Assembly: GCA_964466575.1 (NCBI GenBank)
Contig: CAYXNP010000008.1
Span: forward strand, 9,060-45,491
DNA from: Candidatus Woesearchaeota archaeon
Lineage (GTDB): Archaea > Nanobdellota > Nanobdellia > Pacearchaeales > GW2011-AR1
Direction of reading: 5' to 3'
DNA length: 36,432 nucleotides
The position numbers and the translations under genes are program-made. The stretch's first letter is position 1. Each line of letters begins with the position of its first letter. The notes below the pieces were generated by a model that was not told where the DNA came from, did no database searches, and saw only the letters and a program-made list of their open reading frames with translations. Below are positions 2,580-34,540 of this stretch, one piece after another.

Positions 2580-2580
2580 A

Positions 2581-3114: not shown

Positions 3115-3256
3115 GGAGAAGCGGAAGTTTTAGTTAAGGGGAGTGTGGGAAAAAGTTTAAGAAAAAATATTGGAGGTGACTTCGGAAAATACCAGAATAA
3201 GTAAAACTTAGTGTGTTGTTGCATGGCGACGATATACTATGTGCAGGTAAGTAGAA

Positions 3257-3805: not shown

Positions 3806-3834
3806 GTGTTCAGGGGCTAAGCTAGAAAGAATAA

Positions 3835-6184: not shown

Positions 6185-6538
6185 CAAGAATGAATGGAGA
6201 AGCGTCGCTTTCACAGCCAGTGCGAGTTGGCGCTTCTCCTTTTTAGGGGAAGTGGGAAAGAGTTTGAAAAACAAAACGAAAGGAGTCTCCGACTAAATCG
6301 GATTAGTCATCCAAGGTGAGGGGAGAAAAGTTTTTAGTAAATGAAATCGCTTTGCGATTTCGAAGAATTACCACTCACTTCGTTCGTGTTATAACGTAGC
6401 TCGAAGTCTGTTTTACAGGACTTCTCGCTGAAAAGGGTTAATCCAAAAGTTTCTGATACATCATTGTGTCTGGAAAAAAGGTTATATCCTAATGAAATGC
6501 GAACAGAGCGAGTTAATCTCAGGTTGAAAGGATGTATC

Positions 6539-6910: not shown

Positions 6911-6953
6911 CGAACAACTTCCACCATGGTCATCGAAGTTTAAGCAAGTTCAA

Positions 6954-7026
6954 CGCGAGTTCATAAGTCCCAACCTCCGTCCCCCGACCACCCACCCGGA
7001 CGAAGTGCGGAATAAATGAACTCGCG
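6954..7026. repeat. Stem-loop repeat family copy A: 11-bp perfect stem CGCGAGTTCAT/ATGAACTCGCG enclosing the pyrimidine-rich core CCCAACCTCCGTCCCCCGACCACCCACCCGGA
   Basis: Direct reading; the same architecture with co-varying stems occurs at 7852, 16353 and 34141. Confidence 0.6.
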
Positions 7027-7192
7027 ATTATTTGAATTTGCTAGAATCAAATTGAATTGAGGGAGCGCGGATTCTTCAAAAGAGATGAAGCGCTCCCTTC
7101 GCTGTTTTTGTGGGAAGTGGGGAAAGAATTTAGTTGTAGAAAAAGTTGCTGTGTGCAGCGACGGAAGAAGCTGTTTTGGAAAAGAGGAAGAA

Positions 7193-7525
7193 ATGAAAAA
7201 AAACACTGCTTTAGGTTTTGTTCTTGGCGTAATTGTGGGTATTTTAGTAGATTGTTTTATTACAATGGTGGTTAGTAATGTGAGAGAAGTTGTTTTGTAT
7301 GAAAAAGAGGATTTACCGAATGTGATAAGAGTTCAGGAGTTCGGAGTAGATTCAATCTTTGTTTATGATTTTGGCGAAGTTTCCGTGCCAGACATAGACG
7401 GAGTGACGATGACAAAAACTCTTTTCATTTCACTTTCGGATTGGATGGACAAAATAGAGTCCGAATCTTTACGGGCTCTTAGGACGGTCGAGATAAACAC
7501 ACTCGTTGAGATATACGATAATTAA
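7193..7525 (+). CDS. Membrane-anchored hypothetical protein (110 aa); the ORF-track 5-prime extension (7085) is unlikely
   Basis: ATG 7193 is preceded by an AGAGGAAGAA SD-like stretch; N-terminal TM helix. Confidence 0.4.
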   Translation: MKKNTALGFVLGVIVGILVDCFITMVVSNVREVVLYEKEDLPNVIRVQEFGVDSIFVYDFGEVSVPDIDGVTMTKTLFISLSDWMDKIESESLRALRTVEINTLVEIYDN

Positions 7526-7563
7526 CGTCGAACTATGAGAGCGACGGAAAGGAAGTAAGAGAA

Positions 7564-7743
7564 ATGGAATTAGAGAAAAAAAGAACAGAACTCGAAATGA
7601 GGTTAGCAAAAGATCAAGAGCCCGCCTTGTACTCTCTCGGAAGCTGTCTTGTCATAGTTCTTGGATTGCCAATTTTGTGTTTTCTTGTGAAGGCTTTTGA
7701 GAGGATGTATTATGGGTATGGTTTTTGGCCGTGGAATTGGTAA
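7564..7743 (+). CDS. Small TM protein (59 aa), SD GGAAGGAAG upstream
   Basis: Manual ORF; one hydrophobic helix; below the ORF-track cutoff. Confidence 0.3.
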   Translation: MELEKKRTELEMRLAKDQEPALYSLGSCLVIVLGLPILCFLVKAFERMYYGYGFWPWNW

Positions 7744-7805
7744 TTAAAAATAGCAAGGCTGAATTAATCATCCTTAACAAATCATATTCCGATTTGGCAT
7801 TGCTA

Positions 7806-16977: not shown

Positions 16978-17037
16978 ATTCTAAAAACTTATAAATGATT
17001 AAATTATAGAAATTTAATCATTAAAGCCCCTGTAGTA

Positions 17038-17193
17038 TAGAGGCCAAGTATGCCGCCCTCTCATTACCGAAGTTTAGTCGATGAGATGGTAACTTCAGTC
17101 CCCTTAGGACAGGTATCCTTGTTATATCCTCTGATTTTTTCAAGGATATTTCAGAGAACGGCGGTGACCCGAGTTCAAATCTCGGCGGGGGCA
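17038..17193 (+). tRNA. tRNA-Glu(CUC) with an 83-nt intron at the canonical 37/38 position (exon 1 17038..17075, exon 2 17159..17193 including discriminator A; CCA not encoded)
   Basis: Manual fold: acceptor GCCCCTG/CGGGGGC, D-arm GTAT/GTAT, anticodon stem CCGCC/GGCGG, loop CUCUCA with anticodon CUC, T-arm CCGAG-TTCAAAT-CTCGG. Intron ends were inferred from stem complementarity; the BHB was not verified. Confidence 0.7.
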
Positions 17194-17246
17194 TTAGAAC
17201 TAATAGGGCGAAATATTTATAAAGTAGGGCTTTATTATATTTCTTA

Positions 17247-18119
17247 ATGAAAACACCATTTGGAAAAGTTAATATAGAGCGTATTGAAATAATTAAGCGT
17301 GCGTATGAAATAGAGGGGAGAATGACTTTAAGGCGTTGCTTTTATGTTTTATATGGAAAGGGAAAAATAAAAAATTCAAAAAGCGCATACCAAAGTTTAT
17401 CACAAATATTTCTTAAAGCGAGAGAGTTGGGTTATTTAGATTGGAATATTATAGAGGATAGGCACAGACAAATTTTAAGAAGAACTACTTATAGTGATTT
17501 TGATAGTGCGTTTGATATTTTGTGTAAATATTATAGAAAAGATAGTATGTTATCACAAGATAATTATGTTGAAGTTTGGATAGAGAAAGACGCAGTTGCA
17601 GGAATTGTTTATGATTTAACGTATGATTTAGATGTGTTGCTACTAGTAGGGAAAGGATTTGTTAGCGGAACACATTTAAAAAAAGCGAGCGATAGATTTA
17701 AAGAAATTGATAAACCAATTACTATTTTATATATTAGTGATTATGATTGTGAGGGTGAATTTTTTAAAAGAAAAGCAGAAGAGAAATTAAAAGAGTATGG
17801 TTGTGAAAACGTTAGTATTAAAAAAATTCTTTTAACTAAACCACAAATAAAGAAATATAAGTTATTAATTAATTTTGTTGAATTTAAAAAAGAACAATTA
17901 AGAAAAAATTATGTTCAAGAATTTAAGAAAAATAATAAAGATTTAGGGAATGACGGAGAAATACAAGTTGAGTTAGACGCGCTTTCTAACATAGAATTAA
18001 AAGTGATTTTACAAAAAGAATTAGATGATTTGGTTGATAGCAAAATAGCAGAATTATCAGATACGGAAAGTTTGAAAGAGGTTGAAAAATGGAAAAAGAA
18101 AAATTTAAAAATAAAATGA
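17247..18119 (+). CDS. Standalone Top6A/Spo11-like protein (5Y-CAP with RxxFY plus a Toprim domain), Mini-A-like; first gene of the integrated element
   Basis: MTLRRCFYVLYG (a candidate catalytic Tyr with Arg at -4 as in Spo11 RDIFY), Toprim glutamate motif VWIEKDAVAGIV (compare Top6A/Spo11 VEKDAVF) and DxD motif YISDYDCEGE about 50 aa later. Confidence 0.55.
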   Translation: MKTPFGKVNIERIEIIKRAYEIEGRMTLRRCFYVLYGKGKIKNSKSAYQSLSQIFLKARELGYLDWNIIEDRHRQILRRTTYSDFDSAFDILCKYYRKDSMLSQDNYVEVWIEKDAVAGIVYDLTYDLDVLLLVGKGFVSGTHLKKASDRFKEIDKPITILYISDYDCEGEFFKRKAEEKLKEYGCENVSIKKILLTKPQIKKYKLLINFVEFKKEQLRKNYVQEFKKNNKDLGNDGEIQVELDALSNIELKVILQKELDDLVDSKIAELSDTESLKEVEKWKKKNLKIK

Positions 18120-19453
18120 AAGAACAAAGTTTAGTATTAAAGATAAAGAATGTTAGCGAGGCAGATAAGAGCTATAATTTTAAACACCTTATAGAACAGC
18201 AATTAAAGAATATTCTAGAAAATAAGAAAATTAGTAATAAGAATAAACAATTAATTATTTCATTTTTACAGAATTGCATTAATGAAAGTTTAAGTAATGC
18301 AAGAGTGAGTTTTTATATTTCAAAATTTAAGATTATTACTAGGATAATTAAAAAAGATTTTGATAAATGTGAAAAAGGAGATATTGAAAAATTTATTAGT
18401 GAAATTTCTAGTAGGTATGATAAAGCAGAAACAAGAAGAGCTTTTATAGTTACCATAAAAAAGTTTTATAGATATTTAACGGGTGAAGATAACCCGAAAG
18501 TTATTAGTTGGATTAAAGGAAAAAATTATAATAAAACTGCAAAACGCCAAAGTGAGAAAATAAAAATTGAGAATATTTTAACAGCGCAAGAAGTAGAATT
18601 AATGATAGAAAAGGCGAGTAATCCACGAGATAGAGCATTAATGGGTTTATTGTATTATAGTGCGGGGCGTATTGGTGAGGTTATTATTTTAAGAATTAAA
18701 GATATTGAGTTTAATGATTATAGAACTATTGTAGGTTTGAATGGAAAAACGGGTTATAGAAAAGTGCCTGTTATTGAATGTAGTAAGATGTTAAAGGATT
18801 GGTTAGAATATCATCCAGATAAAAATAATAAAGAAGCGTATGTTTGGGTTAGTTTTGCAGATGTTAATAGAATTAAAAATTTAAATAAAGGCGGAAAAAA
18901 TAAGCAAGAATTACGAGAGCCAAAAATTAATTCTAGCCAACATATCGGGGTTAGATATGTAGCTAAACTTTTAGGAGAGTTAGGTGATTTAGCGGGAATT
19001 GATAAAAAAGTTAATCCACATAATTTTAGACATTCTAGATTAACAGCTTTGGGAATAATGGGTATTGATGAAGATATGATAAAACTTTATGCGGGGCATA
19101 GTAAAACTTCTAATGTTACTAGTATGTATAAACATTATAGTTATGATAACTTAAATAATGAATTTGATAAATTATACGGGATTAAAACAGAAGAAAAAAA
19201 TAATGAATTGATTAATTGTTTTAGGTGTGGGCATTTAAATAGAAATACGCTAGAAGTGTGTGAGAACTGCGGTTTAGCTTTAAATGTGAAAGAGGCGGGA
19301 AATTTAGATAAAATAAAAAAGAAACAAGCGAGCGTAAATAAAATTATGAAGGTATTGTTAGAAGATGATGTATTTAAGAAATTTCTAGCGCGTTATTTAA
19401 TTGATAAAAATATGGTTGATTATGCTAAACAATTAGCCGAAGAGGAAAATTAA
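18089..19453 (+). CDS. int: Tyrosine recombinase/integrase (454 aa) with a C-terminal Zn-ribbon
   Basis: Catalytic R (YYSAGRIGEV), HxxR (NPHNFRHSRLT) and Y (MYKHYSY); CxxC...CxxC (CFRCGH...CENCG); tRNA-proximal position typical of integrases. Confidence 0.8.
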   Translation: MEKEKFKNKMKEQSLVLKIKNVSEADKSYNFKHLIEQQLKNILENKKISNKNKQLIISFLQNCINESLSNARVSFYISKFKIITRIIKKDFDKCEKGDIEKFISEISSRYDKAETRRAFIVTIKKFYRYLTGEDNPKVISWIKGKNYNKTAKRQSEKIKIENILTAQEVELMIEKASNPRDRALMGLLYYSAGRIGEVIILRIKDIEFNDYRTIVGLNGKTGYRKVPVIECSKMLKDWLEYHPDKNNKEAYVWVSFADVNRIKNLNKGGKNKQELREPKINSSQHIGVRYVAKLLGELGDLAGIDKKVNPHNFRHSRLTALGIMGIDEDMIKLYAGHSKTSNVTSMYKHYSYDNLNNEFDKLYGIKTEEKNNELINCFRCGHLNRNTLEVCENCGLALNVKEAGNLDKIKKKQASVNKIMKVLLEDDVFKKFLARYLIDKNMVDYAKQLAEEEN

Positions 19454-19507
19454 AATATAAAATAATAATATTTAAAAAAGATATAAACCTTAATAGTATA
19501 TTAAAAA

Positions 19508-20038
19508 ATGAGAAAAGAAAAAATAGAAAAACGAAAACGTGGAGTACCTTATTTAGGTAGTATTGATTTAGAAATTTTGGAATTTTTAGATACGCCGAAT
19601 TATATAGCAAATAAAAACGGGTGGGCGGTTTTGGATGTTGTTGAAAAAATGGGAATACAACATAATAACCTTAAACCGCATATTGATAAATTATTAAAAT
19701 TAAAATTAATAGTTGTAGTTGATTTAAGCGATTATAAACATAAAGGAAAAAGGATTATTGAAAATAAAAAAGTTGGTTTAACTTCTATTAAAGCTAGAAA
19801 TAATTTTTGGCTTGAAAATTATGCGGATTTTGATGGGGATGAGAAATATAAAGAAGAGGCAAAGAAAGAGAATGAATATTTTGATTTTATTATTTCATTC
19901 TTTAGAGATATAAAAAAATATTTTTATGATAAAGAGAATGAAGAATTTTTAAAATTAGATTTGCGAAGTAAAGAAACGCAAGAAAACTTTAAACAAAATT
20001 ATTCAAGAAAAAATGAAAAGACAACTACTAAAAAGTAA
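19508..20038 (+). CDS. Putative winged-helix DNA-binding protein with a Lys/Glu-rich C-terminal tail
   Basis: An HTH-like N-terminal region (LEILEFLDTPNYIANKNGWAVLDVVEKMGIQHNNLKPHIDKLLKLKLIVVV) resembling MarR/ArsR wHTH; inference only. Confidence 0.35.
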   Translation: MRKEKIEKRKRGVPYLGSIDLEILEFLDTPNYIANKNGWAVLDVVEKMGIQHNNLKPHIDKLLKLKLIVVVDLSDYKHKGKRIIENKKVGLTSIKARNNFWLENYADFDGDEKYKEEAKKENEYFDFIISFFRDIKKYFYDKENEEFLKLDLRSKETQENFKQNYSRKNEKTTTKK

Positions 20039-20117
20039 CTAATGTATTCTTTTAGTTTATATCTTATTAAAGTATATTAGCACAACATTTAAATAGTTTT
20101 AATAAGATATTATTAAA

Positions 20118-20351
20118 ATGGTGCAGACAACAAAAACGATTTCATTTACAGAGGAACTAGATAGGCAATTAGGTGAGGCGGTTGATGATTTAAATAAAAC
20201 GCAGATTACGGGCGCTATTTCTAAAAGTAAAATAATTCGTGTCGCTGTGTCGGAATATCTGGAAAAGTTAAATAAAATAAAAAAAATTCGTAAAGATTAC
20301 GCAGACGTAACTAAAACCGCCGAAGATATTTTAAAAGAAAATGGATATTGA
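20118..20351 (+). CDS. Ribbon-helix-helix (CopG/Arc-like) DNA-binding protein
   Basis: An N-terminal beta-strand plus two helices (KTISFTEELDRQLGEAVDDLNKTQ...IIRVAVSEYLEKL). Confidence 0.45.
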   Translation: MVQTTKTISFTEELDRQLGEAVDDLNKTQITGAISKSKIIRVAVSEYLEKLNKIKKIRKDYADVTKTAEDILKENGY

Positions 20352-20440
20352 TTTTTGTGTAACAGACGCTAAATATTGGAAACCCATAATTGAGGAAATT
20401 AAAAAAATTCAGGAACATCGCGAAATTTTGAAAGCTAGTT

Positions 20441-20671
20441 TTGAGGGAATTAAATAAATTTTTTGAGGTAATAAAAATGTGTTGTGATAAGTATAAAAAA
20501 GTAAGAGTAATTTTTGAGGATTTAAACGCTATTAATAAAAGCCGTTCTAAAGTTGGTTATATTCTTTCTAAAGATAATGAATTTGTAGAAATTAAAACAG
20601 ATAATCGCACGGAGTTTATACCGATTTGTAAAATAATCAGAATTGAGGTTTTAGAAAATGGATATAAATAA
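20441..20671 (+). CDS. Hypothetical small protein; likely start ATG 20477 (SD GAGGTAA)
   Basis: ORF track; a small beta-rich protein. Confidence 0.3.
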   Translation: MRELNKFFEVIKMCCDKYKKVRVIFEDLNAINKSRSKVGYILSKDNEFVEIKTDNRTEFIPICKIIRIEVLENGYK

Positions 20672-20915
20672 TTTAACAAACGCTGTAAAAGAAATAGAAA
20701 AAAATATTAAGATATTGGAAAATTCTAAATTTGAAAAAATAAAATATCTTGTTAAGAATGGGCGACAAGTTAAGCTAACTTTATGTAATGATGATTTAAA
20801 AAATTTGTTTGATGTTGAAGAAATTAAAAGTGTTGAGAAATTTGTAAATACTTCTAAATTTTCTAAACAAGTTAGGATGTATGAATTTAAAAGTGGATTT
20901 ATAATTTTAAAATGA
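20658..20915 (+). CDS. Hypothetical protein (85 aa), overlaps the previous gene (operonic)
   Basis: ORF track; 14-nt overlap. Confidence 0.3.
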   Translation: MDINNLTNAVKEIEKNIKILENSKFEKIKYLVKNGRQVKLTLCNDDLKNLFDVEEIKSVEKFVNTSKFSKQVRMYEFKSGFIILK

Positions 20916-21044
20916 AACAGAAAAAAGATTATGAAAATACAAACGGGTTAAGCGATAGCAAGTTAAAAGAATTATTTGATAGAAAGTTTAGAGAAGTTTT
21001 AAGATTAAGAAATTGTGATAAAATAAAAATTAGGTTGGTGAAAA

Positions 21045-21383
21045 ATGGAAAATAATGATAAGATAATAGAACGGGGAAAACAAACTTTTAAAGAAAAGGA
21101 GAAATTTGAAAAAATGAAATTAAAGAAAGACGATATTGTTCAAATTATATGGAGAGACGCTACTTCTTCAGAAGATTTTCCAATTCATAAAATTAAAAAC
21201 CCCACTGAAATGTTATCTGTTTGTAAAAATGTTGGTTTTTTTGTTGGTAGGGATAAAGGGGCGATTTGTGTTGCAACACAAATTAGCGATGATTTGAAAA
21301 TGGATTTATTAGTAATCCCTTTAAGTTGGACTATTAAAATTATAAAATTAAAAGGTAAATTAGAAAATGGAAACCCAAAATAA
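21045..21383 (+). CDS. Hypothetical protein (112 aa)
   Basis: ORF track. Confidence 0.35.
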   Translation: MENNDKIIERGKQTFKEKEKFEKMKLKKDDIVQIIWRDATSSEDFPIHKIKNPTEMLSVCKNVGFFVGRDKGAICVATQISDDLKMDLLVIPLSWTIKIIKLKGKLENGNPK

Positions 21384-21867
21384 TTATAATGTTGATAAGC
21401 TAGAATTTAGGCAGATTGTTCTAGGGCATATTAAAAGGATTTTAGAAATAGGTAGCCACGAGTTACGGGATACCACGCGACAGATTGATACAGCTAACCA
21501 CACGCAGATTATAGAACAAGAGGATACAAGATATAGTTATATACAAGCGATAGAAAATTTAGCTTATGTTTTAATACCTTATTTTGATGATGAGATATTA
21601 CAAGTTTATGAAAGATGTGAGAGAATTATAAATGGGTTTGGTTATGAGGTTAGAAATATTTTAAATAAAACATTTGAACGAATAAAAAAGGAAACAGGGA
21701 AAGAAAATTTAGAAAATGTTTTTGTTTTAGAGATGAGGTTAAGATATTCAAAGAAATTATTTATTGCATTAAATATGCTGTTAAAGAGAAATGATTATTT
21801 GAAGAGTGCTATTTATGGAGAGGAGAAAGATGAAGTTGCGCAAGATAATGAAGAGAGTGAGGAATAA
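21367..21867 (+). CDS. Hypothetical protein (166 aa) with an acidic C-terminus
   Basis: ORF track; the stop overlaps the start of the ATPase gene (TAATG). Confidence 0.35.
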   Translation: METQNNYNVDKLEFRQIVLGHIKRILEIGSHELRDTTRQIDTANHTQIIEQEDTRYSYIQAIENLAYVLIPYFDDEILQVYERCERIINGFGYEVRNILNKTFERIKKETGKENLENVFVLEMRLRYSKKLFIALNMLLKRNDYLKSAIYGEEKDEVAQDNEESEE

Positions 21868-22817
21868 TGGCGAACGCAATAGTAATTTATCGCGGGAAAG
21901 CAAAAAATAATAGTTGGGCGCGTTGGATGGTTAGCAGAACTATGAAACAGAATAAAAATAATCTTATTTCTGTGGTAGGAAAAACGGGCAGTGGAAAAAC
22001 CCTAAGTGCTATTTCTATATGTGAGATAATGAGTAAAATGGATGGTGTTCCTTTTGATGTTAAGATACACGTAGTTTTTACTTTAAAAGAATTAATGGAT
22101 TTAATTAATAGCGGAAAGTTAAGGCGAGGTAGTAAAATAGTTTGTGACGAATTTCAGTGTAGCGTATCCGCGCGTGAATTTCAAACTAAAGCAAACAAAA
22201 TTTTTAATTATGTATTAAGCACGTTTAGGCATTTGAATTTAACTTTATTCTTTTGCACACCATTTGAAACCTTGTTAGATAAGAACACTAGAAAGTTATT
22301 TCACGCACGTATTGAAACTATGAACATTAATAAGAATAATCAAACGTGCAGATTAAAACCGCGCTATATTGAGTATGCAGATTTTAAAGCCGAGCCATAT
22401 AGAAAACAAATGATTGTTTGCTATAAAGATGATAGTGGTAATAATAAATCGCGCCCGTTATTTTATTGGGATGTTCCGCGCCCGAGTAAAGAGAATGAAG
22501 ATAGTTATGAGAAAATGAAGTTTGATTTTACTAGAAGATTGAATAAAAATATTTCATTAGAGTTAAAGAGTGATAGAAGTTTAACAGATGAGTATAAAGA
22601 AGAGATAGTAATTAGAAAGCCACTAACACAAACGCAAGAGCGGGTTATGAAAGTGCTAGCAAACATAAAAGAGAGTAATAAGTTTGAGCGTGCAAGTGAG
22701 ATATTAAAGATTAGTTTAAATGCAATACATCAAAACAAGACATTAGCAGAAAAGAAAGGTTATAGTGTTGGGGAGTTTAAAGAAAATGTTGAAGATAAGA
22801 ATACAGAACAGCAATAA
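21867..22817 (+). CDS. P-loop NTPase (Walker A GKTGSGKT, Walker B IVCDEF); possible DNA-packaging or translocase-type ATPase of the element
   Basis: Motifs ISVVGKTGSGKTLSAI and SKIVCDEFQCS; family assignment uncertain. Confidence 0.55.
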   Translation: MANAIVIYRGKAKNNSWARWMVSRTMKQNKNNLISVVGKTGSGKTLSAISICEIMSKMDGVPFDVKIHVVFTLKELMDLINSGKLRRGSKIVCDEFQCSVSAREFQTKANKIFNYVLSTFRHLNLTLFFCTPFETLLDKNTRKLFHARIETMNINKNNQTCRLKPRYIEYADFKAEPYRKQMIVCYKDDSGNNKSRPLFYWDVPRPSKENEDSYEKMKFDFTRRLNKNISLELKSDRSLTDEYKEEIVIRKPLTQTQERVMKVLANIKESNKFERASEILKISLNAIHQNKTLAEKKGYSVGEFKENVEDKNTEQQ

Positions 22818-23148
22818 GTTTATTGATGTGGCGGTTGAACATCCCTATTTATTAGGTAGCCCTGAAGTGTATGAGCGAGAACTTAAACCAAAGCTACAAG
22901 AGATTATTAATAGGGATAACTTAAAGTGTAGCGGTTGCGGTAAGCCCTTAATTAATAGGGGTTGGAAATGTGTTAATCACCGCCCTATGAGTGCGGGCGG
23001 GTTTAAAGAAAAGTTAAGGGTTGAAAATAAAGATACAGCAATTCATTATATAGATTATGAATTAAAAGATATGTGGGCTATGTTCTTATTTTGTTTTGAT
23101 ACCCGCGCAGATTGTATAAGTAAATGGAAAGACAAGCGCCCAAAATGA
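22765..23148 (+). CDS. Zn-finger protein (CxxC...CxxH), possibly HNH-like
   Basis: CSGCGKPLINRGWKCVNHRP; start uncertain (overlaps the upstream gene by 53 nt). Confidence 0.3.
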   Translation: MLGSLKKMLKIRIQNSNKFIDVAVEHPYLLGSPEVYERELKPKLQEIINRDNLKCSGCGKPLINRGWKCVNHRPMSAGGFKEKLRVENKDTAIHYIDYELKDMWAMFLFCFDTRADCISKWKDKRPK

Positions 23149-23393
23149 ATAAAGATATTGATAGTATGAGCCGAGAAGAGTTAGTTAGATTAATTAATAA
23201 TATGATAAATGAAAAGGAGTTTGGATTAAACCCAATTAATAAAGTTAGTGTTTGTGATGTTGAAGTAGCTAGTAGTATGGAGAGTTTAGATAGTTGTAAG
23301 AAAGCTGTTAATGATTTGATTAAACAAAATAAAAAGTTTATTACATTAAGACAAAATAAAATTAAAGCTGATAGTTTAGGTTATTTTGGGTGA
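23124..23393 (+). CDS. Hypothetical protein (89 aa)
   Basis: ORF track; followed immediately by the GTGAATGTA palindromic element. Confidence 0.3.
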   Translation: MERQAPKMNKDIDSMSREELVRLINNMINEKEFGLNPINKVSVCDVEVASSMESLDSCKKAVNDLIKQNKKFITLRQNKIKADSLGYFG

Positions 23394-23441
23394 AGTGAAT
23401 GTATTACTACAAAAGTGAATGTAGTAATATGTAGTAATTCA
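23392..23441. repeat. Palindromic element family (AAGTGAATGTATTACTACA / GTGAATGTAGTAAT...ATGTAGTAATTCAC), related to the elements at 29394..29476
   Basis: Direct reading; it sits at a gene end inside the element. Confidence 0.5.
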
Positions 23442-23690
23442 CGATTTATAAATAAAGATAATTCTGTTTTCTTGATGTTAAAACTAATAGCTTGTTTAAT
23501 CGCGATTAGAATTTCTAAACAGATTAGAGAGAACTATATTAAAAGATGTGTTGGGTGTGGCGCGGAGTTAGATATAGAAGATTATTTTTTTAATAATTGC
23601 TGTGAGTATTGCGGTAGCACACAAGGTTATGATAAAGAGTATTGTGGAAATTCTGAATTAAATAATTGTGTGGTGTTAGAAAATGTTTAA
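23415..23690 (+). CDS. Zn-ribbon protein (CVGCG...CCEYCG)
   Basis: Two CxxC pairs; immediately upstream of, and overlapping, the PrimPol gene. Confidence 0.35.
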   Translation: MNVVICSNSRFINKDNSVFLMLKLIACLIAIRISKQIRENYIKRCVGCGAELDIEDYFFNNCCEYCGSTQGYDKEYCGNSELNNCVVLENV

Positions 23691-24237
23691 AGATATTGAA
23701 TTATTTAACCCGAAGTTTGTAAGAACAGAAAGAGAAACTACTAACTATGAAACAGGCGCGGATTATAATGAGAATATTTATTTTGATTTTGTTAATGGTG
23801 ATTATGTTGCGCGGGATAAAGAAAGATACTGCGATTTAACTTTAAAACAATATTTAGAAAATGTTGAGAGAGAGAAAGGGTTTGTTAGCTATCATATATC
23901 TTTAAGGAGTTCGGACAACAAGAAAGCGTTATTAGTTTTTGAAAGTGATAAGAAAGGTGATGATGTTATTAAAAAATTGACTAGGTTAGTTAGAGAGAAG
24001 GGCGTTAAATTTATTCTTAAAACAAGTGGAAATAGAAGTTTGCATTTAGTAATACCTATTATTGCAGAAACCGAAGAGGAGTATAATAGGCAGTGGCTAG
24101 GGATATTTTATTTATTAGACGCAAGAGATAGAGAGTTTATTGATGAACAATTAAATAAATTTTCGGGGCAGGTTAGGGGTTTTGAAAGTTTGCATTTAAA
24201 AACTTATGATAAAAGCGAGGTTTTAGAATATGATTAA
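23683..24237 (+). CDS. Small archaeo-eukaryotic primase (AEP) / primase-polymerase-like protein (184 aa)
   Basis: AEP-like motif I (LLVFESD), motif II (LKTSGNRSLHLVIP) and motif III-like (EFIDEQ); 8-nt overlap (ATGATTAA) with the PolB gene. Not searched against profiles. Confidence 0.5.
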   Translation: MFKDIELFNPKFVRTERETTNYETGADYNENIYFDFVNGDYVARDKERYCDLTLKQYLENVEREKGFVSYHISLRSSDNKKALLVFESDKKGDDVIKKLTRLVREKGVKFILKTSGNRSLHLVIPIIAETEEEYNRQWLGIFYLLDARDREFIDEQLNKFSGQVRGFESLHLKTYDKSEVLEYD

Positions 24238-27200
24238 TTTAGAATTAGAAGATTTTGAGAATAATAAAAGAATAGTTAATAGCTTTTGTTTAGAAAATAA
24301 ATCTAATAAAAATTCTAGCGCGGGTGTTACTTCGGTTATGGGTAGAAGTAAAAACACCCGTTCTAGTTTTTTATTTGATACTATTGAACTAAATAGACAA
24401 GAACAGCTTTTAGAGGTTGCTAGGAATTTAAAAAAAGGTGAGCGTGGTGTTTGCTTAACTTACATAGCTAGCAAGTTAAAAAAGAATGATGAGAATAAAA
24501 AGTTTTTTGAAAAGGTTGTTAAAACTATTAAAGATAAGCGTGAGTTTGATATTAGTGAGGAGTTGAAAAAAGGTTATAATGTTTTTGAGAAAGGTTATAG
24601 TAAAAAGCTAGTTGATAAAACAGAACACGGGCGAGAGATTGTTAAGGCGTTGTATGGATATGAAAGAGAACTTATTATTAAGCGCGGGATAAATGAGGTT
24701 TGGGATGACTATAAAGCAAGAGTTAGTTTAATTGAAGATAAAGAAAAGCGAGAGAGAAAATTTAAGGAATGTGAAGAGGCGAAAGCATTTTTAGAAGCGA
24801 GAGGATTTTTAGAGTTTATACCTGACGCACGTAACGGAATACAAATTTATCATAGTTTAAGATTAATGGAAAATAGCGGGGGCTTGAAAATTACAAGAGA
24901 GGATTATAATGTTTTGGATTTAGGATTTAAAGAAGATATGATTAAAGGAACGCTAGCAGAGAGCGGGCTTAATGAACTTAATGAAGAATTGAAAGAAGTT
25001 AATGAGCTTGTTAAGAAAGAGTTGGAAAGTAAGAATATGGTTGTTGAGTTTAAGCCCGAGATACCAAAGCCCGCTAAAAATGATTATGGCGATTTTGGTT
25101 TAATGAATAAAGGGAATAAAAAATTTACAAAAATATATTATGATATTGAAACAGATTATAAACAAGAGGCGTGTTTAATTGGTGTTTATAATAAAGATTT
25201 AAAGAGGATTGTGTTAGCGCAGATTGTTAAAGAGATTAGATTAAAAGAGGGTGAGCAAAAGATTAACCCGAGATTTGAAAAAAGTTATAAGGATGGTTTT
25301 GAAATTATTAAGTGCGAGGTTGTTAATGGATATGAGGCGGTATTTTTAGCTGATTGTGAAAGTTATTTAGCTTGTGTTTGTAATTCTTTAATGAGGCAAG
25401 GCGATAAAACACCTAGCATATTAAAAGAAATGATTAAAGGAGTTGATATAAACTTTAATTATTTTTCAGAAATTTACAACAATAAAAGGCGTAGCTTGTG
25501 GATAGCGCATAATTCTAATTTTGATATTAATAAATTAAATCTAACTGCGAGAAATGGATTAAAACATATTGATAGTAGCGGGGTTAAGGTTGAAGATATT
25601 ATTATTAATACTTTTGGGAATAAGAAAAGATATTTAGGTTATTTATTTAATCCCGATAAAAATTTAAATGAGCGCGAGAAGTGGGGCGTTAGCTATAAGC
25701 TAGGGAATAGAAATATAGGAGTTTATTTTAAAGCTAGCACGCAGAAATACGGGTTATGGGAAAAGCCCGAGATTGAATTAAAACCTATTCAGAAAGAAAG
25801 CGATAATTATGTTTATGCGCTTGATAGTGTTTTAGTTGCTAGGGCGTTGCAGAAAAAGAGCGCTAGCTTAAAGAATTTAGGTGATGAGTATGATTTAGAA
25901 GTTAAGAAAGCAGAAAGCGAATATAATTTTAAGGGCGGTGAGTTGTGGAGTAGCGCAGAAAAAGATATTAAAGAAGTTGAGTATTTGATTAAAGATTTAT
26001 TTGTTACTGATTATGTTTTTAGAGAGCTAACGAAAGAGCTTGATGTTATTGAGAATTTACTAGGGTTAGTTAAGATTGATAAAGATAGAATTAAAAAACA
26101 CGCGTCTGAAATGCCTTATTTGTATAGGGTTTATTCTACTGCGAGTTTATCAAAGCTGTTTTATCAAATAAAGTATAGTGAGGATTATGATGATTGGAAA
26201 GTTAAACACGGCAATTCTAAATTTTATGAAAATATAAACGAGCTGTTTAAAGAGGTTTATAGCGGTGGTAGAGTTGAGATATTTAGGCACGGGATTATAA
26301 AAGATAAGAAAATAGTTTATTCTGATTTTGCTAGCTTATACCCGCACACTTCTTATTTAACAAATGTAGAGCCGTTAATGAATGATATTTTAAACAAGAA
26401 ATTAAAATTTACTTCGGATATTGAAGAGATTGAATATAGCTTTTGGGTTATGATACATAAGCTAGCAAAGAAGATTAAGAATAAAGAGCCGTTGGTTAAA
26501 GAGGATTTTTGTGATAGCGCGGTTTTAAATGTTAAAATTAATAATATTAATTTAAGGTTAAGCAGAAAGGCGAACATATTTAGAGGGAAAGTTAAAACAG
26601 ACGCTAATAAAAGAAATCGTTGCGATTTAATTATAAATAAAGGTAGCGTTGTTAATGTTAGCTGTTATGATTTATGTTATAGTGTTCTTGAACAGCATTT
26701 AATTAATAATATTAATTTAGAGGATTTACAGAAAGATATTATTTTTAATAAAGGTTTAATGGTTGTGCCGAGTTATAGAACTTCTAAAAATGAAGATATG
26801 CACACGTTACTTTATGAAAGAAGAGGTAGTATTAAAAATGAGATTAAGGGGATTGAAAAGATTAAAGAGAATGAAGAAAAAATAAAACATTTGAAAAGCC
26901 AAAGTGAATTTATTAAAATTATTCTAAATGCGGGTTATGGAATTACTGCGGAATTTAATAACGATAGAGCGGGGCAATTTTATAACCCTATTTTAGCGAG
27001 CAGTATAACGGGAATGGCTAGGTTAATGAATAACATAACAGAAATAAGCACGAGGTTTTATGGTTTTGATGTTTATTATTCTGATACTGATAGTTGTCTA
27101 ATGGATAGCGGGGGTTATGATATTGTTAGTAATTTGTTTAAGGATGTTTGCGAATTAAAAAACGAATTAAGTGAGAATGTTTTTGTTAATAATATGCTTA

Positions 27201-29341
27201 TTGTAGGCGCGAAAGAATACGCATATTTTACAAATAATAAAGAGGAGTATGGGGTTAAAACTCACGGAGTAGGTTTTAGAGCTAGCGGTTATAAAAGTGT
27301 TCTTGATAAATTATTTAGAAGTTTGATTAATGGAGTTGATAAAGATACAGCAATTAAAGAGGCGGTTGGTGTTGCGCCTATGTTAAGAGGTTTTAATTTT
27401 TCACACGTATATGGTAGAACTAGCACGCTATACACGGGATTAGCAGATATTATTAATAAAAAGAAAGAAAGTTTAGGCGAGTATAAAATAGATGATAGTG
27501 TGTTTAAATGTTATCAATATGGAAAAACGGGTTTGTTTATTTCTGATTGTGAGAATATAACAAAAGGCACGTTCGGGTTAATGTTTAGATTGAGTGAGCC
27601 GAAGATTTATTTTTTTAGTGTTAAGTATGGTTTTAATGATAAGATGTTAAAAGAAGTTTTAGAAAATATTGAGGGTATATCTGAAAACGATAGAAAGATT
27701 ATTTTAGAAAGATTAGATAGTAAGTATAGCGAGATTTTATTTTTAGATAAATATTTAGGGAAAAACGAAGATAATGTTAAACGTAGAATTTTAGAGGGTG
27801 TTGTTGGTGAGGGTAATGTTTGCGTGCCTTTTGATTGTGAAGTGAAAGAAGATATTAATATAAGTTTTAATGAGAAAAAGTTAGAGCTTGATGGTGTTGA
27901 ATACTGCGGTATGGTTGAATTACCTAAATTTGATTTTGCTAGTAAAATGCAAGCGGATTTAACAACATTTTACAGCAAGGCGATAACTTCTATAAGCAAG
28001 AGTTTAAGCTATTGGTTTGTTAAAAGGCAAAATCCCGATAATGCAGAAGAGGTTTTTAATAAAAGAAATAGCGAGTTGTTGATACCACAGAAGAAAAACG
28101 AGATATTAGTGCCGTTAAATATGGTTGAAGTGCCTGAAAGTGAGGCACAGATTAAGCTAGCCCTAGAAGAGAGAGAAAAGAAGAAAGTTTTAGATAAATA
28201 TTTTATGAAAACAGAAACGGGCGGTTATTATGGATTAAAAAAGAAAGTTGATTTTAGTGAGATTAAAGATGAACTTTTAACAATATTAAAACCTAGAAAC
28301 ACAATAATAACAGAAGAGTTTAATAAAAAGAAATATTGGTTTGAGGTTACTAGCTATAAAGCAAATAACTTTAATGCAGTTTTAAGGATTAATGTAGTTG
28401 TTGGAAATCCGCCAATACTAAAATATTATTTATGGATTAATCCAAGACATTTTAACTCTTTTTTTAATGTTGATTTGTGGAACGCGAGCTATACGGATTT
28501 AATGTTTAGTAGTGAGGGGTTAAGTAATGTTGTGAATAAGGTGTTTGAAATTGCTTATAATAATTCAGAACATTCGCACGGAGTTGTTTATAATTCTATT
28601 TTAAGCGGGTTTAGTAGAGGCGCGAGTTATAGCTTAAATGATTTGAAAAAGAATAATAAATATTTTTTAGATATTTGTTATAGCGTTGCGTGTTCGTTTA
28701 TTGTTATGAATAGTGTTAAGCATAGCAGTTTAAAGATAGGGCGTTTAGATTTGAGTAAAAATATTAATATGAATGTTGGAAAGGATAGGCAAGATTTAGT
28801 TATATCTTTTTTACAAACGCAAATGAATAAAGAAGTTGGTGATTTTTTAGATTTTAAGAGTAATAATAATTTTGTTGATAGGGTTAGATTGAGTGAAAAA
28901 ATTTATACGGCTAGTAGCGGGCATTATAGCGGGCTTGTGAATAAACGAACAAAAATAAGCCAAGTAATTTATAACAAGAGCCAACAGCTAGATTATAAAT
29001 TATTAAAGAGTTGTAGAAAGAAAAGTTTTAATTCTAGACAAATAACTAAATTTTATGAACAGAAATTAGAGATAGAGCGAAAAAATAAAGATACTAATGT
29101 GTGGCGTTTAGAAGTTCAAGCATACGGATATAAAGCAATTCAGAAAGCCGTTAATAGCTATGATAAGATTATGAAGAAAATGGAAAATTTGCTTTTGATT
29201 GTGATTAGATTAATTAATAAGATTGATATGAGTGATTTTGTTTTATTAACACAATTAGGTGAAGAGAGTAAAGCGTTTAGTTTTTGGTTTAATGATATTG
29301 TGAAAGAGAGATATAAACCGCCGTTGCTTTTGGTTACGTGA
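24230..29341 (+). CDS. polB: Giant family B DNA polymerase (1703 aa) with an intact 3-prime-5-prime exonuclease, an about 290-aa N-terminal extension and an about 700-aa C-terminal extension of unknown function
   Basis: Ordered motifs: Exo I YYDIETDY, Exo II IAHNSNFDI, Exo III YLIKDLFVTD, Pol A DFASLYPH, Pol B KIILNAGYG, Pol C YYSDTDS, KxY GAKEYAY. Confidence 0.85.
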   Translation: MINLELEDFENNKRIVNSFCLENKSNKNSSAGVTSVMGRSKNTRSSFLFDTIELNRQEQLLEVARNLKKGERGVCLTYIASKLKKNDENKKFFEKVVKTIKDKREFDISEELKKGYNVFEKGYSKKLVDKTEHGREIVKALYGYERELIIKRGINEVWDDYKARVSLIEDKEKRERKFKECEEAKAFLEARGFLEFIPDARNGIQIYHSLRLMENSGGLKITREDYNVLDLGFKEDMIKGTLAESGLNELNEELKEVNELVKKELESKNMVVEFKPEIPKPAKNDYGDFGLMNKGNKKFTKIYYDIETDYKQEACLIGVYNKDLKRIVLAQIVKEIRLKEGEQKINPRFEKSYKDGFEIIKCEVVNGYEAVFLADCESYLACVCNSLMRQGDKTPSILKEMIKGVDINFNYFSEIYNNKRRSLWIAHNSNFDINKLNLTARNGLKHIDSSGVKVEDIIINTFGNKKRYLGYLFNPDKNLNEREKWGVSYKLGNRNIGVYFKASTQKYGLWEKPEIELKPIQKESDNYVYALDSVLVARALQKKSASLKNLGDEYDLEVKKAESEYNFKGGELWSSAEKDIKEVEYLIKDLFVTDYVFRELTKELDVIENLLGLVKIDKDRIKKHASEMPYLYRVYSTASLSKLFYQIKYSEDYDDWKVKHGNSKFYENINELFKEVYSGGRVEIFRHGIIKDKKIVYSDFASLYPHTSYLTNVEPLMNDILNKKLKFTSDIEEIEYSFWVMIHKLAKKIKNKEPLVKEDFCDSAVLNVKINNINLRLSRKANIFRGKVKTDANKRNRCDLIINKGSVVNVSCYDLCYSVLEQHLINNINLEDLQKDIIFNKGLMVVPSYRTSKNEDMHTLLYERRGSIKNEIKGIEKIKENEEKIKHLKSQSEFIKIILNAGYGITAEFNNDRAGQFYNPILASSITGMARLMNNITEISTRFYGFDVYYSDTDSCLMDSGGYDIVSNLFKDVCELKNELSENVFVNNMLIVGAKEYAYFTNNKEEYGVKTHGVGFRASGYKSVLDKLFRSLINGVDKDTAIKEAVGVAPMLRGFNFSHVYGRTSTLYTGLADIINKKKESLGEYKIDDSVFKCYQYGKTGLFISDCENITKGTFGLMFRLSEPKIYFFSVKYGFNDKMLKEVLENIEGISENDRKIILERLDSKYSEILFLDKYLGKNEDNVKRRILEGVVGEGNVCVPFDCEVKEDINISFNEKKLELDGVEYCGMVELPKFDFASKMQADLTTFYSKAITSISKSLSYWFVKRQNPDNAEEVFNKRNSELLIPQKKNEILVPLNMVEVPESEAQIKLALEEREKKKVLDKYFMKTETGGYYGLKKKVDFSEIKDELLTILKPRNTIITEEFNKKKYWFEVTSYKANNFNAVLRINVVVGNPPILKYYLWINPRHFNSFFNVDLWNASYTDLMFSSEGLSNVVNKVFEIAYNNSEHSHGVVYNSILSGFSRGASYSLNDLKKNNKYFLDICYSVACSFIVMNSVKHSSLKIGRLDLSKNINMNVGKDRQDLVISFLQTQMNKEVGDFLDFKSNNNFVDRVRLSEKIYTASSGHYSGLVNKRTKISQVIYNKSQQLDYKLLKSCRKKSFNSRQITKFYEQKLEIERKNKDTNVWRLEVQAYGYKAIQKAVNSYDKIMKKMENLLLIVIRLINKIDMSDFVLLTQLGEESKAFSFWFNDIVKERYKPPLLLVT

Positions 29342-29393
29342 GATTTTTTATTTTTATTATTAATAATTTTGGTTAGCTTTTGCTTTAATTTCT

Positions 29394-29476
29394 CTATTAA
29401 GTGAATGTATTACTACATATTACTACATTCACTTACTTTTGTGTTTTGAAGTGAATGTATTACTACATTCACTTAC
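29394..29476. repeat. Two tandem copies of the palindrome AAGTGAATGTA-TTAC-TACATTCACTT, each followed by ACTTTTGTG and a T-rich tract; terminator- or origin-like hairpins downstream of polB
   Basis: A perfect 11-bp inverted repeat in copy B (29447-29472); copy A carries a 10-nt internal duplication. Confidence 0.55.
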
Positions 29477-29949
29477 TTTTGTGGTATTTTTTAAGTAGGA
29501 TATTTACACGAACGAATATGTCGCCTTTATTATTACTATAAGTTAAGCTATTCTCCGAACGATTAGAGTTTGAAATAAGGTTATGATTGTTGTGTTGATG
29601 AATATATTAGTTTTTTTATTATTCTTTTAGTATTTTTCAGTGTTTTACAGCATATAACCGCCATCACGCGCGTATTAAATTAACTTATAAGGTGAGAATT
29701 TTTAGGTATTATTCTATTGAAAGGGGTTGTTGTGGCTAGAATGAAGATGAAAGGATATAAGTAAAGAATTTCAGCAAGGGATTAGCAATAGGTTTTAATA
29801 TTGTTTCTCTAACATTAATCTTGTGTGATGTCCCATAATTACTTTACACTTTAGATTTATCTAAGGTGGTATTTTATAGATAATAATTGGGAACCAAAAG
29901 TATTTTAATAATTGAATATATAGAAATTCATAATAGGAGGACTATTAAA

Positions 29950-30072
29950 ATGAATGACAATGAATTTATCGACGACATTTTAGGACATCACCGAATAGGA
30001 AACAAAGCCATTACTGAAATGGAATTAAGTAAAGAGATTAATGAACTCTTTGATGTGAATAGAGAAATGTGA
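29950..30072 (+). CDS. Small hypothetical protein (40 aa from ATG 29950, SD AGGAGG)
   Basis: A strong SD, AATAGGAGGACT, is 8 nt upstream. Confidence 0.3.
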   Translation: MNDNEFIDDILGHHRIGNKAITEMELSKEINELFDVNREM

Positions 30073-30400
30073 ATTTTATTTTTTCTTTTTTATTAATGAA
30101 GTTGCGATTAGGAAGCAGTTAAAGATTTTCTATTTGCAAGAAGGGAAAGAGAATTAAAATGGTTTGGAATAAAGTTATAAAACCAGATTTAAAAAATGAG
30201 CAAGAAAAGGTAGCTTTATGCGTTTAAACGCTATTCTAGGGAAAGGATAAAGAAAGATATTTATAGTAGCGGTGTGTTATAAAAATACAAAGGTTTATTT
30301 TTCACGTCGGAATTTTGAAACAAAAACAATACTTCTTATTTAATTACTACTATTTTATACATAACCAATATACTTAAAAGTGTATAGGGTTAAGTGTCTT

Positions 30401-30503
30401 TTCGGCGGGGGCGTTCCTCAATTTGAACAGTTCAAATCTCTGCTCGCGAGCTCACTCACATCAAGCGATTTGGTAAGTTCGTGAACGTCGCTCGGCGGGG
30501 GCG
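30401..30503 (+). mobile_element. Right-end attachment-site remnants: two copies of the tRNA-Glu 3-prime terminus (TTCGGCGGGGGCG at 30401-30413; CTCGGCGGGGGCG at 30491-30503) with a decayed T-loop copy (CAGTTCAAATCTCTG) between them
   Basis: Identical to the T-stem 3-prime strand plus acceptor 3-prime strand of the tRNA at 17181-17192; direct repeats bracket the element 17194-30503. Confidence 0.6.
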
Positions 30504-34408: not shown

Positions 34409-34540
34409 AGCCCTGTCGTATAGTGGTCAAGTATACAGCCCTCTGGTCGAGCTAGTTCACGTTTGAATAAGAATATAAACAAGGAAAGTAGTGGACTAAG
34501 GAGAAAGGCTGTGACCCAGGTTCGAATCCTGGCAGGGCTA
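34409..34540 (+). tRNA. tRNA-Gln(CUG) with a 59-nt intron at 37/38 (exon 1 34409..34446, exon 2 34506..34540), an A1-U72 pair, and an oligo-T terminator downstream
   Basis: Manual fold: acceptor AGCCCTG/CAGGGCT, anticodon stem CAGCC/GGCTG, loop CUCUGG|A, T-arm CCAGG-TTCGAAT-CCTGG; TTTTTCTTT follows. Confidence 0.65.

Follow-up and report, generated by a model that had tools for sequence, protein, structure and literature searches.

The 1703-aa open reading frame at positions 24230..29341 of the window (the whole 36,432-nt stretch of DNA analyzed here) probably codes for the replicase of an integrative, plasmid-like element (~13.2 kb) from an uncultured archaeon, in which a divergent family B DNA polymerase (PolB) is linked to an AEP primase in a small-replisome build. 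The parts of this replicase would follow one another as AEP, all-alpha domain (aa ~50-250), DEDDy exonuclease, PolB and a C-terminal module of ~500 aa, with an RNase H added at the N-terminus in some relatives. Every gene, domain and attachment site described below lies on the + strand; the repeat array and the conserved non-coding block are given without strand.

The gene starts with ATG and is preceded by a 184-aa ORF (23683..24237) that overlaps it by 8 nt (ATGATTAA), and both the pair and its overlap, as noted in the first-pass annotation, are present in the sequence. In an alignment of relatives, mean column identity is 66% over the full length of the 1703-aa protein, and dN/dS is 0.03-0.38 in each replicase domain against 0.3-0.87 in the linkers. 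Conservation over the full length and purifying selection in each domain indicate that the ORF is neither low-complexity in its extensions nor two genes joined together, the two ways in which the annotation had supposed that its description might fail. The gene is real, conserved and under purifying selection in every domain.

All canonical PolB motifs that had been claimed for this protein were located in the right order, between aa 303 and 999. The polymerase domain (aa ~621-1190; 26090..27799) contains motif A (DFASLYP, aa 699-705), motif B (KIILNAGYG, aa 896-904), motif C (YSDTDS, aa 950-955) and the KxY motif (GAKEYAY, aa 993-999), followed by what is probably the thumb (aa ~1000-1190); the spacing between motifs A and B, previously put at ~195 aa, measures 197 aa. 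The catalytic residues are invariant in 17 relatives and are also retained in P0072, a distant relative with 24% identity. The ease of recognition implied earlier did not hold, with no Pfam match to the window protein even at E<=1 and statistical (profile) support confined to motifs A, B, C and KxY. This support includes a match to a Thermococcales PolB in a PDB profile search (E=2.5e-7), with an alignment reaching the start of the thumb, an hhalign comparison to E. coli Pol II (95.5%, E=1.4e-8), and an NCBIfam Pol II match over motifs B-C (E=2.5e-6); searches of Pfam, PHROGs and NCBIfam with the whole protein gave nothing usable beyond Pol II across motifs B-C. Three relatives with 51-71% identity (P0018, P0019 and P0012) clear the Pfam DNA_pol_B (PF00136) cut-off. 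The four motifs (consensus DxxSLYP for A, KxxxNSxYG for B and YxDTDS for C, with KxY) and the profile similarity place the protein among the family B DNA polymerases and establish its palm and fingers, and the enzyme is, as judged from its sequence, a very divergent member of the RNA/DNA-primed type.

Upstream of the polymerase domain, aa ~290-620 (25097..26089) form a putative DEDDy 3'-5' exonuclease domain, an assignment made from motifs alone: ExoI (YYDIETD, aa 303-309), ExoII (AHNSNFD, aa 426-432) and ExoIII (YLIKDLFVTD, aa 585-594). The residue pairs D305/E307, N428/D432 and Y585/D589 are invariant, stand in canonical order and are retained in P0072, and dN/dS in the domain is 0.05-0.13. 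Neither the PDB profile search nor hhalign gave a profile-level alignment of this region to any PolB exonuclease.

The protein of the upstream ORF, previously described as AEP-like, is confirmed by its fold as a member of the AEP superfamily, which is defined by a catalytic fold with motifs I (DxD-like), II (SGxGxH-like) and III (hD ... R/K); its 184 aa are a primase catalytic domain of the Prim-Pol type, with E-x-D at motif I instead of the usual D-x-D. The proposal that primase and polymerase work as a pair is supported, and by stronger evidence than the overlap of their genes, as the two form one fused polypeptide in 13 of 20 relatives (10/13 loci with a readable junction). The split AEP/polB form is common to three independent assemblies (the window, L011 and L014), and relatives P0002 and P0019 additionally carry an RNase H at the N-terminus (RVT_3, E~4e-15). 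In P0072, no AEP of this type was detected at the N-terminus or among the neighbor genes, and the link to a primase therefore does not extend to every member of the wider family.

Large extensions around the polymerase core had also been described, and they exist, but the N-terminal one measures ~250 aa and the C-terminal one ~500 aa instead of the ~290 and ~700 aa first given, and a further ~115 aa are inserted between motifs A and B. The N-terminal extension consists of a linker and a ~200-aa helical domain; this all-alpha N-domain (aa ~50-250; 24377..24979) directly follows the AEP and is proposed to be a primase helper. It matches no known primase helper domain, and PDB sequence/profile searches with the AEP and the N-domain were empty. 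The insertion suspected between motifs A and B is conserved among relatives and appears as a profile gap of ~115-145 aa from motif A to the fingers (aa ~715-860; 26372..26809), with 147 profile positions between the two aligned blocks vs 37 residues in Thermococcus PolB. The C-terminal module (aa ~1200-1703; 27827..29338) is family-specific and comprises three sub-blocks (aa 1200-1300, 1351-1500 and 1501-1703) with the invariant motifs GRxD, Y.G...YNK..Q and WRxEvQAYG. PDB sequence/profile searches with this module found nothing, a profile homology search returned family fragments only, and an exhaustive search of 1.84e9 representative proteins recovered only the replicase family and P0072. 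The likeliest function of the module is the binding of DNA or of a partner protein, and a 500-aa tail that is strongly constrained and has no other relative among those 1.84 billion proteins is a good target in which to look for a new DNA-replication activity or partner interface.

The first-pass annotation overlooked the genomic context of the gene, which lies in an integrated, plasmid-like element of 13.2 kb (~17193-30412). The target is a tRNA gene with a 95-nt intron (17026..17193), whose 3' end contains the left attachment core; it was recognized by ARAGORN with introns allowed and by reading the sequence, escaped both Rfam and ARAGORN in its default mode, and has an uncertain anticodon call. 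Counting of exact copies found the 11-bp att core TCGGCGGGGGC three times in the window vs 0 expected, as attL (17182..17192), as attR (30402..30412) and as a further copy (30492..30502), which is preceded by a tRNA T-arm-like piece (30429-30439) and is possibly the scar of an earlier integration. The flank at 17196-17242 matches sequence on the attP side of L002, an episomal relative, and that at 30372-30401 matches the opposite side of the L002 attP region. Close relatives are circles of 12.5-13 kb: L007 has a 127-bp terminal overlap, which makes it circular, and L002 is circularly permuted, with its breakpoint inside the polymerase gene. Together with the 454-aa tyrosine integrase (18089..19453; Pfam Phage_integrase, E=7e-21; phrog_1 integrase, E=1.6e-29), the att cores, the tRNA gene, the L002 attP and the circular L007 establish that the integrase inserted the element at the 3' end of a tRNA gene that contains an intron, and that circular forms exist.

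Gene order is conserved among the elements, and no capsid-like or membrane proteins were found in them. A 316-aa P-loop ATPase with a C-terminal HTH-like tail (21867..22817) has a visible Walker A motif (GKTGSGKT), matches phrog_5484 'DnaA-like replication initiation protein' (E=1.3e-10) and keeps its place in the gene order across the family; it is a candidate initiator, helicase loader or helicase, and no helicase was assigned with confidence in the element. A 290-aa topoisomerase-like cargo protein, probably Topo mini-A-like (17247..18119; phrog_6247 'DNA topoisomerase', E=5e-41; no Pfam or PDB sequence match), is unique to the window copy among close relatives, being absent from L002-L017, and has a counterpart near the distant polymerase P0072 in L037 (E=1.6e-15). 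Elsewhere in the window, rRNA was considered as the cause of a high-GC block at 1-7000 and was rejected.

In every element, the polymerase gene is followed on its 3' side by a repeat array and by a non-coding block of high conservation. In the window, the array (29398..29483) directly follows the polB stop and consists of two ~26-nt direct copies with palindromic arms (GTGAATGTATTACTACATTCAC); the arrays of relatives occupy the same position with differing sequences that fall into three classes. The adjoining block (29484..29567; GGTATTTTTT...CGAACGAATAT...TTATTACTATAAGT.A..CTATTCTCCGAACGATTAG) is a candidate for the origin core or main promoter, with 54 of 125 columns invariant in 7 elements, even with L002 among them, the polymerase of which is only ~48% identical. 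An origin-binding role had been suggested for the extensions of the polymerase and is not supported, at least as far as the repeat arrays are concerned: no polymerase segment co-varies with repeat class, and the C-terminal domain was therefore rejected as a determinant of origin specificity. The sole element protein that does track repeat class is an 85-aa protein (20658..20915), a candidate binder of these repeats, with identities of 87/71/73% in class I vs 46/53/58% in classes II and III, a correlation drawn from six loci only.

We propose that the AEP and the adjacent helical domain would synthesize a primer on the element DNA. The probable place for this is the repeat array and conserved block immediately 3' of the gene, or their vicinity. 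In the window, the split AEP would be coupled translationally to polB through the ATGATTAA overlap. The active site of PolB may then receive the primer in cis, or inside a tight complex, and extend it with proofreading, and RNA primers would be removed by an RNase H that is part of the enzyme or comes from the host. The P-loop ATPase and the 85-aa repeat-linked protein would probably provide origin recognition or unwinding. What we infer in this scheme is that primers are handed over, that the N-domain acts as a helper, where the origin lies and what, if anything, the C-terminal module does.

A different role for the C-terminal module, which we consider rather unlikely, is that of a Rep_trans/G2P-like rolling-circle nickase, with PolB extending the nicked 3'-OH and the AEP priming only the complementary strand. 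The likeness to Rep_trans and inovirus G2P (PF02486; PMC4797284) is motif-like and lies in the last 200 aa, where GRLD resembles TRLDLAxD, Y.G...IYNK..Q resembles T.Y.G.R.S...RIYNKK.E and WRLEVQ resembles WRLELQ by eye. There are also fold-level hints (a TBP-like sheet), with Foldseek against viral models giving an unnamed top match at probability 1.00 (E=5.6e-4) and inovirus G2P at probability 0.91, although the structure model of the module is only moderately confident (pLDDT 62). In an ordered PSSM test the module scored 15.6 bits, a value attained in 6 of 2000 shuffles and in none of 93 real ORFs, but the scores were 79-114 bits for genuine Rep_trans proteins, 7-11 for other members of the family and about -2 for P0072, and blocks 1 and 2a fail to score. 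Against profiles built from hand-collected, diverse Rep_trans sequences (n=13 and n=15), hhalign gave 3-9% and aligned WRLE only, against a single RepD it gave 0.5%, and Pfam was empty in all 13 members searched. With residue roles taken from PMC4797284, the module lacks several residues that are essential in Rep_trans: block 1 has an invariant Asn in place of its second Asp, no Arg stands two residues ahead of the putative catalytic Tyr, and the full Rep_trans set (TRxDxAxD, TxYxGxRxS, RxYNKxxE and WxRxE, with three acidic metal ligands besides the catalytic Tyr) was not found. The hypothesis, moreover, was framed only after the sequence was seen. Were a very remote Rep_trans/G2P-like nickase nonetheless the C-terminal part of an "all-in-one" replicase (RNase H - primase - helper - exonuclease - PolB - nickase), for which we see a similarly small chance, one polypeptide would nick, prime, copy, proofread and process primers. 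We know of no protein in any domain of life that unites a rolling-circle initiator with a replicative polymerase.

It is quite unlikely that the enzyme is repair, translesion or defense-related primase-polymerase cargo and not the replicase of its element. The AEP structures nearest to that of the window are NHEJ/LigD-type and CRISPR-associated Prim-Pols, which would suit such a role, but structural likeness among AEPs does not separate functions. The polymerase gene is the sole large gene common to all elements of the family; it adjoins the putative origin and accounts for ~40% of an element of 13 kb in which there is no other polymerase.

Protein-primed replication, with an extension acting as a terminal-protein-like primer of the phi29, PRD1 or casposon type, is highly improbable and already largely refuted. 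Protein-primed PolBs such as that of phi29 carry TPR1 between motifs A and B, the place of the insertion in the window protein, and the extensions suggested a terminal-protein-like region in the first-pass annotation. However, the elements are circular or tyrosine-recombinase-integrated and are without terminal inverted repeats, whereas protein-primed PolBs belong to linear genomes with such repeats and a terminal protein and carry TPR1/TPR2 insertions; the enzyme matches Pol II, Thermococcales PolB and Pfam DNA_pol_B and not a protein-primed model, with no DNA_pol_B_2-type Pfam match in the window protein or its relatives; and a primase, in some relatives with an RNase H, is fused to it. That the ORF is an assembly or frameshift artefact merging genes, or the AEP/polB split a sequencing error, has practically no chance of being true, its unusual length and the 8-nt overlap being all that suggests it against an identical architecture on ~20 independent contigs from several sources, dN/dS far under 1 along the whole ORF, a common ...SEVLE[YS][DG]* ending of the split form in the window, L011 and L014, and an identical 1703-aa protein called in at least five assemblies.

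The replicase reading can be set against several known systems. With the RNA/DNA-primed PolBs (E. coli Pol II, Thermococcales PolB) the window enzyme shares motifs A, B, C and KxY and DEDDy motifs in canonical order, and it is 40% identical to Pol II across motifs B-C, whereas it is about twice as long, has the ~115-aa A-B insertion, adds N- and C-terminal modules and a linked primase, and is too divergent in sequence for detection by Pfam. Among Prim-Pol AEPs (LigD PolDom, pRN1 ORF904-type, CAPP), that of the window is minimal at 184 aa, has E-x-D at motif I, and precedes an unrelated helical domain and a full PolB instead of a helicase or ligase. Pipolins (PMC5695915) likewise carry their own PolB and a tyrosine recombinase and integrate at a tRNA gene, but their piPolB, distinguished here by description only, is self-priming and has no primase partner; the dedicated AEP, fused or coupled, argues against a need for piPolB-type priming in the window enzyme.

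A scan of 185,579 GTDB species representatives and of IMG/VR recovered no relatives, tblastn against a plasmid collection gave no match, and this polymerase is not described in published work on Atabeyarchaeia MGEs and Asgard viruses. The sole taxon label among the relatives is that of a 3.4-kb MAG contig, 'Candidatus Odinarchaeia'. If the hosts are Asgard archaea, as that label suggests, the mobile elements of this still poorly known sphere would gain a plasmid replication system with the family.

To our knowledge, fused primase-PolB replicases have so far been characterized only in bacteriophages, where they come with a helicase. In HelPrimPolB (Lactococcus phage 1706 GP55; PMC12205980, PMC7544198), as in the window family, an AEP is followed by an alpha-helical domain and a PolB with a proofreading exonuclease, the last of these putative in the window family, and experiments with this one-polypeptide replicase demonstrated de novo priming and hand-off to PolB, with the helical helper domain required for priming (PMC12205980). 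A relationship to GP55 was considered and set aside, as hhalign gave 0.5% (a weak test, against a single GP55 sequence), tblastn against 50,697 phage records gave no match, and the window protein does not qualify as a HelPrimPolB. The occurrence of fused, split and RNase H-bearing forms in nature makes primase-to-polymerase hand-off and the role of a non-homologous helical "helper" directly testable, and a compact, self-priming and proofreading polymerase could serve DNA amplification. HelPrimPolB belongs to bacterial tailed phages, includes an N-terminal SF3 helicase and is one polypeptide, whereas the window family belongs to archaeal integrative plasmids, has no helicase domain in any member, adds a ~500-aa C-terminal module and sometimes an RNase H, and in the window itself has its primase as a separate ORF. 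In this family, archaea appear to have arrived independently at a coupling of primase and PolB.

The AEP and the polymerase are both present in the window, as ORFs of 184 aa (23683..24237, +) and 1703 aa (24230..29341, +) that overlap by 8 nt (ATGATTAA). A search of 5.8 billion proteins recovered 20 relatives of the polymerase with 49-100% identity, and an alignment of 17 relatives shows conservation over its full length, averaging 66% column identity, with residues still invariant as far as P1698; indel-rich, poorly conserved linkers are found at aa 1-50, 251-275, 1301-1350 and 1601-1625. In pairwise comparisons of the window gene with six full-length loci, dN/dS is 0.03-0.38 in every folded segment vs 0.3-0.87 in the linkers, and the constraint on blocks 1200-1300 and 1351-1500 equals that on the exonuclease. 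Moreover, the 1703-aa product is called identically in several independent assemblies. Given the low dN/dS and the conservation throughout the alignment, the large extensions noted in the first-pass annotation are genuine protein domains; the same data rule out a low-complexity artefact or genes joined by error.

The polymerase is far from easily recognised as a PolB. Pfam returned no match to it even at E<=1, the sole phmmer match among PDB sequences was E. coli Pol II (aa 882-958, E=6e-4), and the NCBIfam Pol II model matched the same residues at 2.5e-6. The family profile matched Thermococcales PolB structures at E=2.5e-7 from motifs B, C and KxY to the start of the thumb, with an additional weak match at motif A, while hhalign related the family to E. 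coli Pol II with a probability of 95.5% (40% identity across 70 columns) and three relatives passed the Pfam DNA_pol_B gathering score. All profile and sequence matches are to RNA/DNA-primed PolBs. The catalytic motifs sit where they had been placed by eye, namely ExoI (aa 303-309), ExoII (426-432), ExoIII (585-594), motif A (699-705), motif B (896-904), motif C (950-955) and KxY (993-999). The suspected insertion between motifs A and B, which are spaced 197 aa apart, is also borne out: the motif A block to the fingers spans 147 profile positions vs 37 residues in Thermococcus PolB, with ~115 aa extra between the two motifs relative to that enzyme. The exonuclease half gave no profile-level alignment in the PDB profile search or in hhalign against E. 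coli Pol II, and the putative exonuclease is assigned from three DEDDy motifs that are invariant and correctly ordered, and are kept even in a relative with 24% identity.

The proposed pairing of the AEP with the polymerase holds, as the AEP forms the N-terminal part of one fused polypeptide in 13 of the 20 relatives; at the DNA level, the junction is fused in 10 of the 13 loci where it is readable. The split form is common to the window and two related loci (L011 and L014), and its ending is identical in all three (...SEVLE[YS][DG]*), showing that the fission within the inter-domain linker was inherited and did not arise from a sequencing error. Following the linker, an N-domain of ~200 residues (aa ~50-250) is confidently all-alpha, has no PDB match by sequence or by fold, and contains no invariant cysteines in the alignment of 17 relatives. 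As a rule, AEP primases depend on an accessory domain of helical fold; examples are PriL-CTD, the ORF904 HBD and the aHD of GP55, the replicase of Lactococcus phage 1706, and the non-homologous aHD proved essential for priming (PMC12205980). From this general need and the position of the N-domain, we infer that it may serve as a primase helper. An extra N-terminal RNase H domain is present in the relatives P0002 and P0019 (RVT_3, E~4e-15) and, by precomputed annotation, in P0020, consistent with RNA-primed synthesis and primer removal.

The C-terminal module (aa ~1200-1703) is an orphan. When 1.84 billion representatives were scanned exhaustively with HMMER using a profile of aa 1300-1703, the matches were solely family members and P0072, a distant 1889-aa protein with the tail region at its own C-terminus; the profile had no match in PDB sequences, and Pfam had none for the C-terminal region of any of 13 members. 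The AF2 model of this region is mediocre (pLDDT 62, reaching ~80 for aa 1504-1690 only), and structural work on the tail offers only hints. We consider it improbable that the tail is a Rep_trans-like rolling-circle nickase akin to RepC/RepD and inovirus G2P: three invariant tail motifs resemble Rep_trans blocks by inspection, and Foldseek against viral models yielded an unnamed top match (probability 1.00, E=5.6e-4) and inovirus G2P at probability 0.91, yet the hhalign probabilities against genuine Rep_trans sequences (one, 13 or 15 of them) were 0.5-9%, with 'WRLE' alone aligned. Likewise, an ordered test with PSSMs built from Rep_trans blocks only gave 15.6 bits vs 79-114 for true members, a score that 6 of 2000 shuffles also attained; blocks 1 and 2a scored nothing, other family members scored lower and P0072 did not score at all. 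The hhalign and PSSM outcomes therefore do not support membership of the orphan tail in Rep_trans. Near its C-terminus, KAFSFWF (aa 1680-1687, nt ~29267-29290), with a conserved h-x-x-W-[FL] and an invariant W1686, resembles a non-canonical PCNA-interacting (PIP-like) motif by pattern recognition alone; the window also contains host RFC genes.

An origin-binding role had also been suggested for the extensions. A repeat array lies directly behind the polB stop in each element (29398-29483 in the window) and falls into three sequence classes. Across six loci, no polymerase segment diverges in step with repeat class, and repeat class is tracked by a single element protein, of 85 aa and without family assignment (20658-20915, +), with identities of 87/71/73% inside the class vs 46/53/58% outside. 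This pattern argues against the tail as the determinant of repeat specificity, albeit from six loci only, and is suggestive, not proof, of the 85-aa protein as a candidate repeat (iteron)-binding protein. After the repeats, a non-coding block of ~85 bp (29484-29567; 1340-1410 in the related contig L002) is nearly invariant, even in L002 with its ~48% identical polymerase; 54 of 125 columns are invariant among seven elements that include L002, a conservation far beyond that of the family's coding sequences. It contains repeated CGAACGA(A/T)T and a TATA-like stretch (TTTATTATTA), and in the circular form immediately precedes attP and the integrase gene. This block is a cis-acting site, a candidate origin core or main promoter.

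The polymerase gene resides in a 13.2-kb element bounded by 11-bp direct repeats (TCGGCGGGGGC), located at 17182-17192, in the 3' end of an intron-containing (95 nt) tRNA, and at 30402-30412. Three copies of this att core are observed vs zero expected. The third, exact copy (30492-30502) lies beyond attR, where 30413-30502 comprises a tRNA T-arm-like piece (GTTCAAATCTC), 52 nt and the core, and may have been left behind by an earlier integration or by a tandem element that has since decayed. The intergenic region of L002 joins the right flank of the window to its left flank, as would be expected of an attP site; L002 (12.6 kb) is circularly permuted with its break inside the polymerase gene, the related contig L007 has a terminal overlap of 127 bp, and several further contigs are 12-14 kb long. 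The genes of the element, conserved in order, code for a tyrosine integrase, a CopG-like protein, a P-loop ATPase (DnaA-like PHROG, 1e-10), zinc-finger proteins, the AEP and the polymerase. As no capsid-like or membrane proteins are found among the element's products, it is more likely to be a plasmid than a virus. The flanking genes include archaeal RFC subunits, and within the polymerase family a single taxonomic label exists, 'Candidatus Odinarchaeia', attached to a MAG contig of 3.4 kb. Two tRNA genes in the window have long introns (17026-17193, 95 nt; 34409-34540, ~59 nt); the former was missed by default ARAGORN and by Rfam, and the ARAGORN anticodon calls for both (Ser-aga; 'Pyl'-cta) look unreliable.

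A probable stand-alone protein of Topo mini-A-like type, 290 aa long (17247-18119, +), is encoded between the tRNA and the integrase and matches a PHROG 'DNA topoisomerase' family (E=5e-41); none of the element's close relatives has it. A role for Topo mini-A as replication initiator in Asgard viruses has been hypothesised (10.1101/2021.07.29.453957). A homologue (6844-7791, E=1.6e-15) is encoded a few genes upstream of P0072 on L037 (JGI 3300033153, contig Ga0366824_1001900, at least 35.7 kb). The ORFans that make up this contig are arranged as two opposed modules, nearly all ORFs lack a Pfam match, and the products include proteins of 747, 619 and 359 aa; the contig probably represents an archaeal virus or large MGE not yet characterised. 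Separately, positions 1-7000 of the window have 44-52% GC against ~30% in the window, and Rfam detects no rRNA there with either of its thresholds. The block contains a 629-aa SPFH/Band-7 ORF (3835-5724) along with numerous overlapping spurious ORFs, and may be a foreign island.

Taken together, the observations of the first-pass annotation stand and its interpretation is supported in part: the primase-polymerase pair is retained, and origin binding by the tail, at least at the repeat arrays, is disfavoured. The polymerase is a predicted self-priming PolB replicase of a kind already known, to which a structurally novel putative helper domain and an orphan module have been added; no description of this family was found in the literature searched. 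Phages are known to encode helicase-PrimPol-PolB fusions, termed HelPrimPolB (PMC7544198), and GP55 of phage 1706 experimentally primes, polymerises, proofreads and unwinds (PMC12205980). The archaeal family is predicted from sequence to operate along the same lines, although it has no detectable sequence relationship to GP55, does not include a helicase, carries the orphan 500-aa tail and sometimes an RNase H, and resides in archaeal integrative plasmids rather than phages. With its own PolB, tyrosine recombinase and tRNA target, the element has a pipolin-like lifestyle (PMC5695915), but in contrast to pipolins it employs a dedicated primase.
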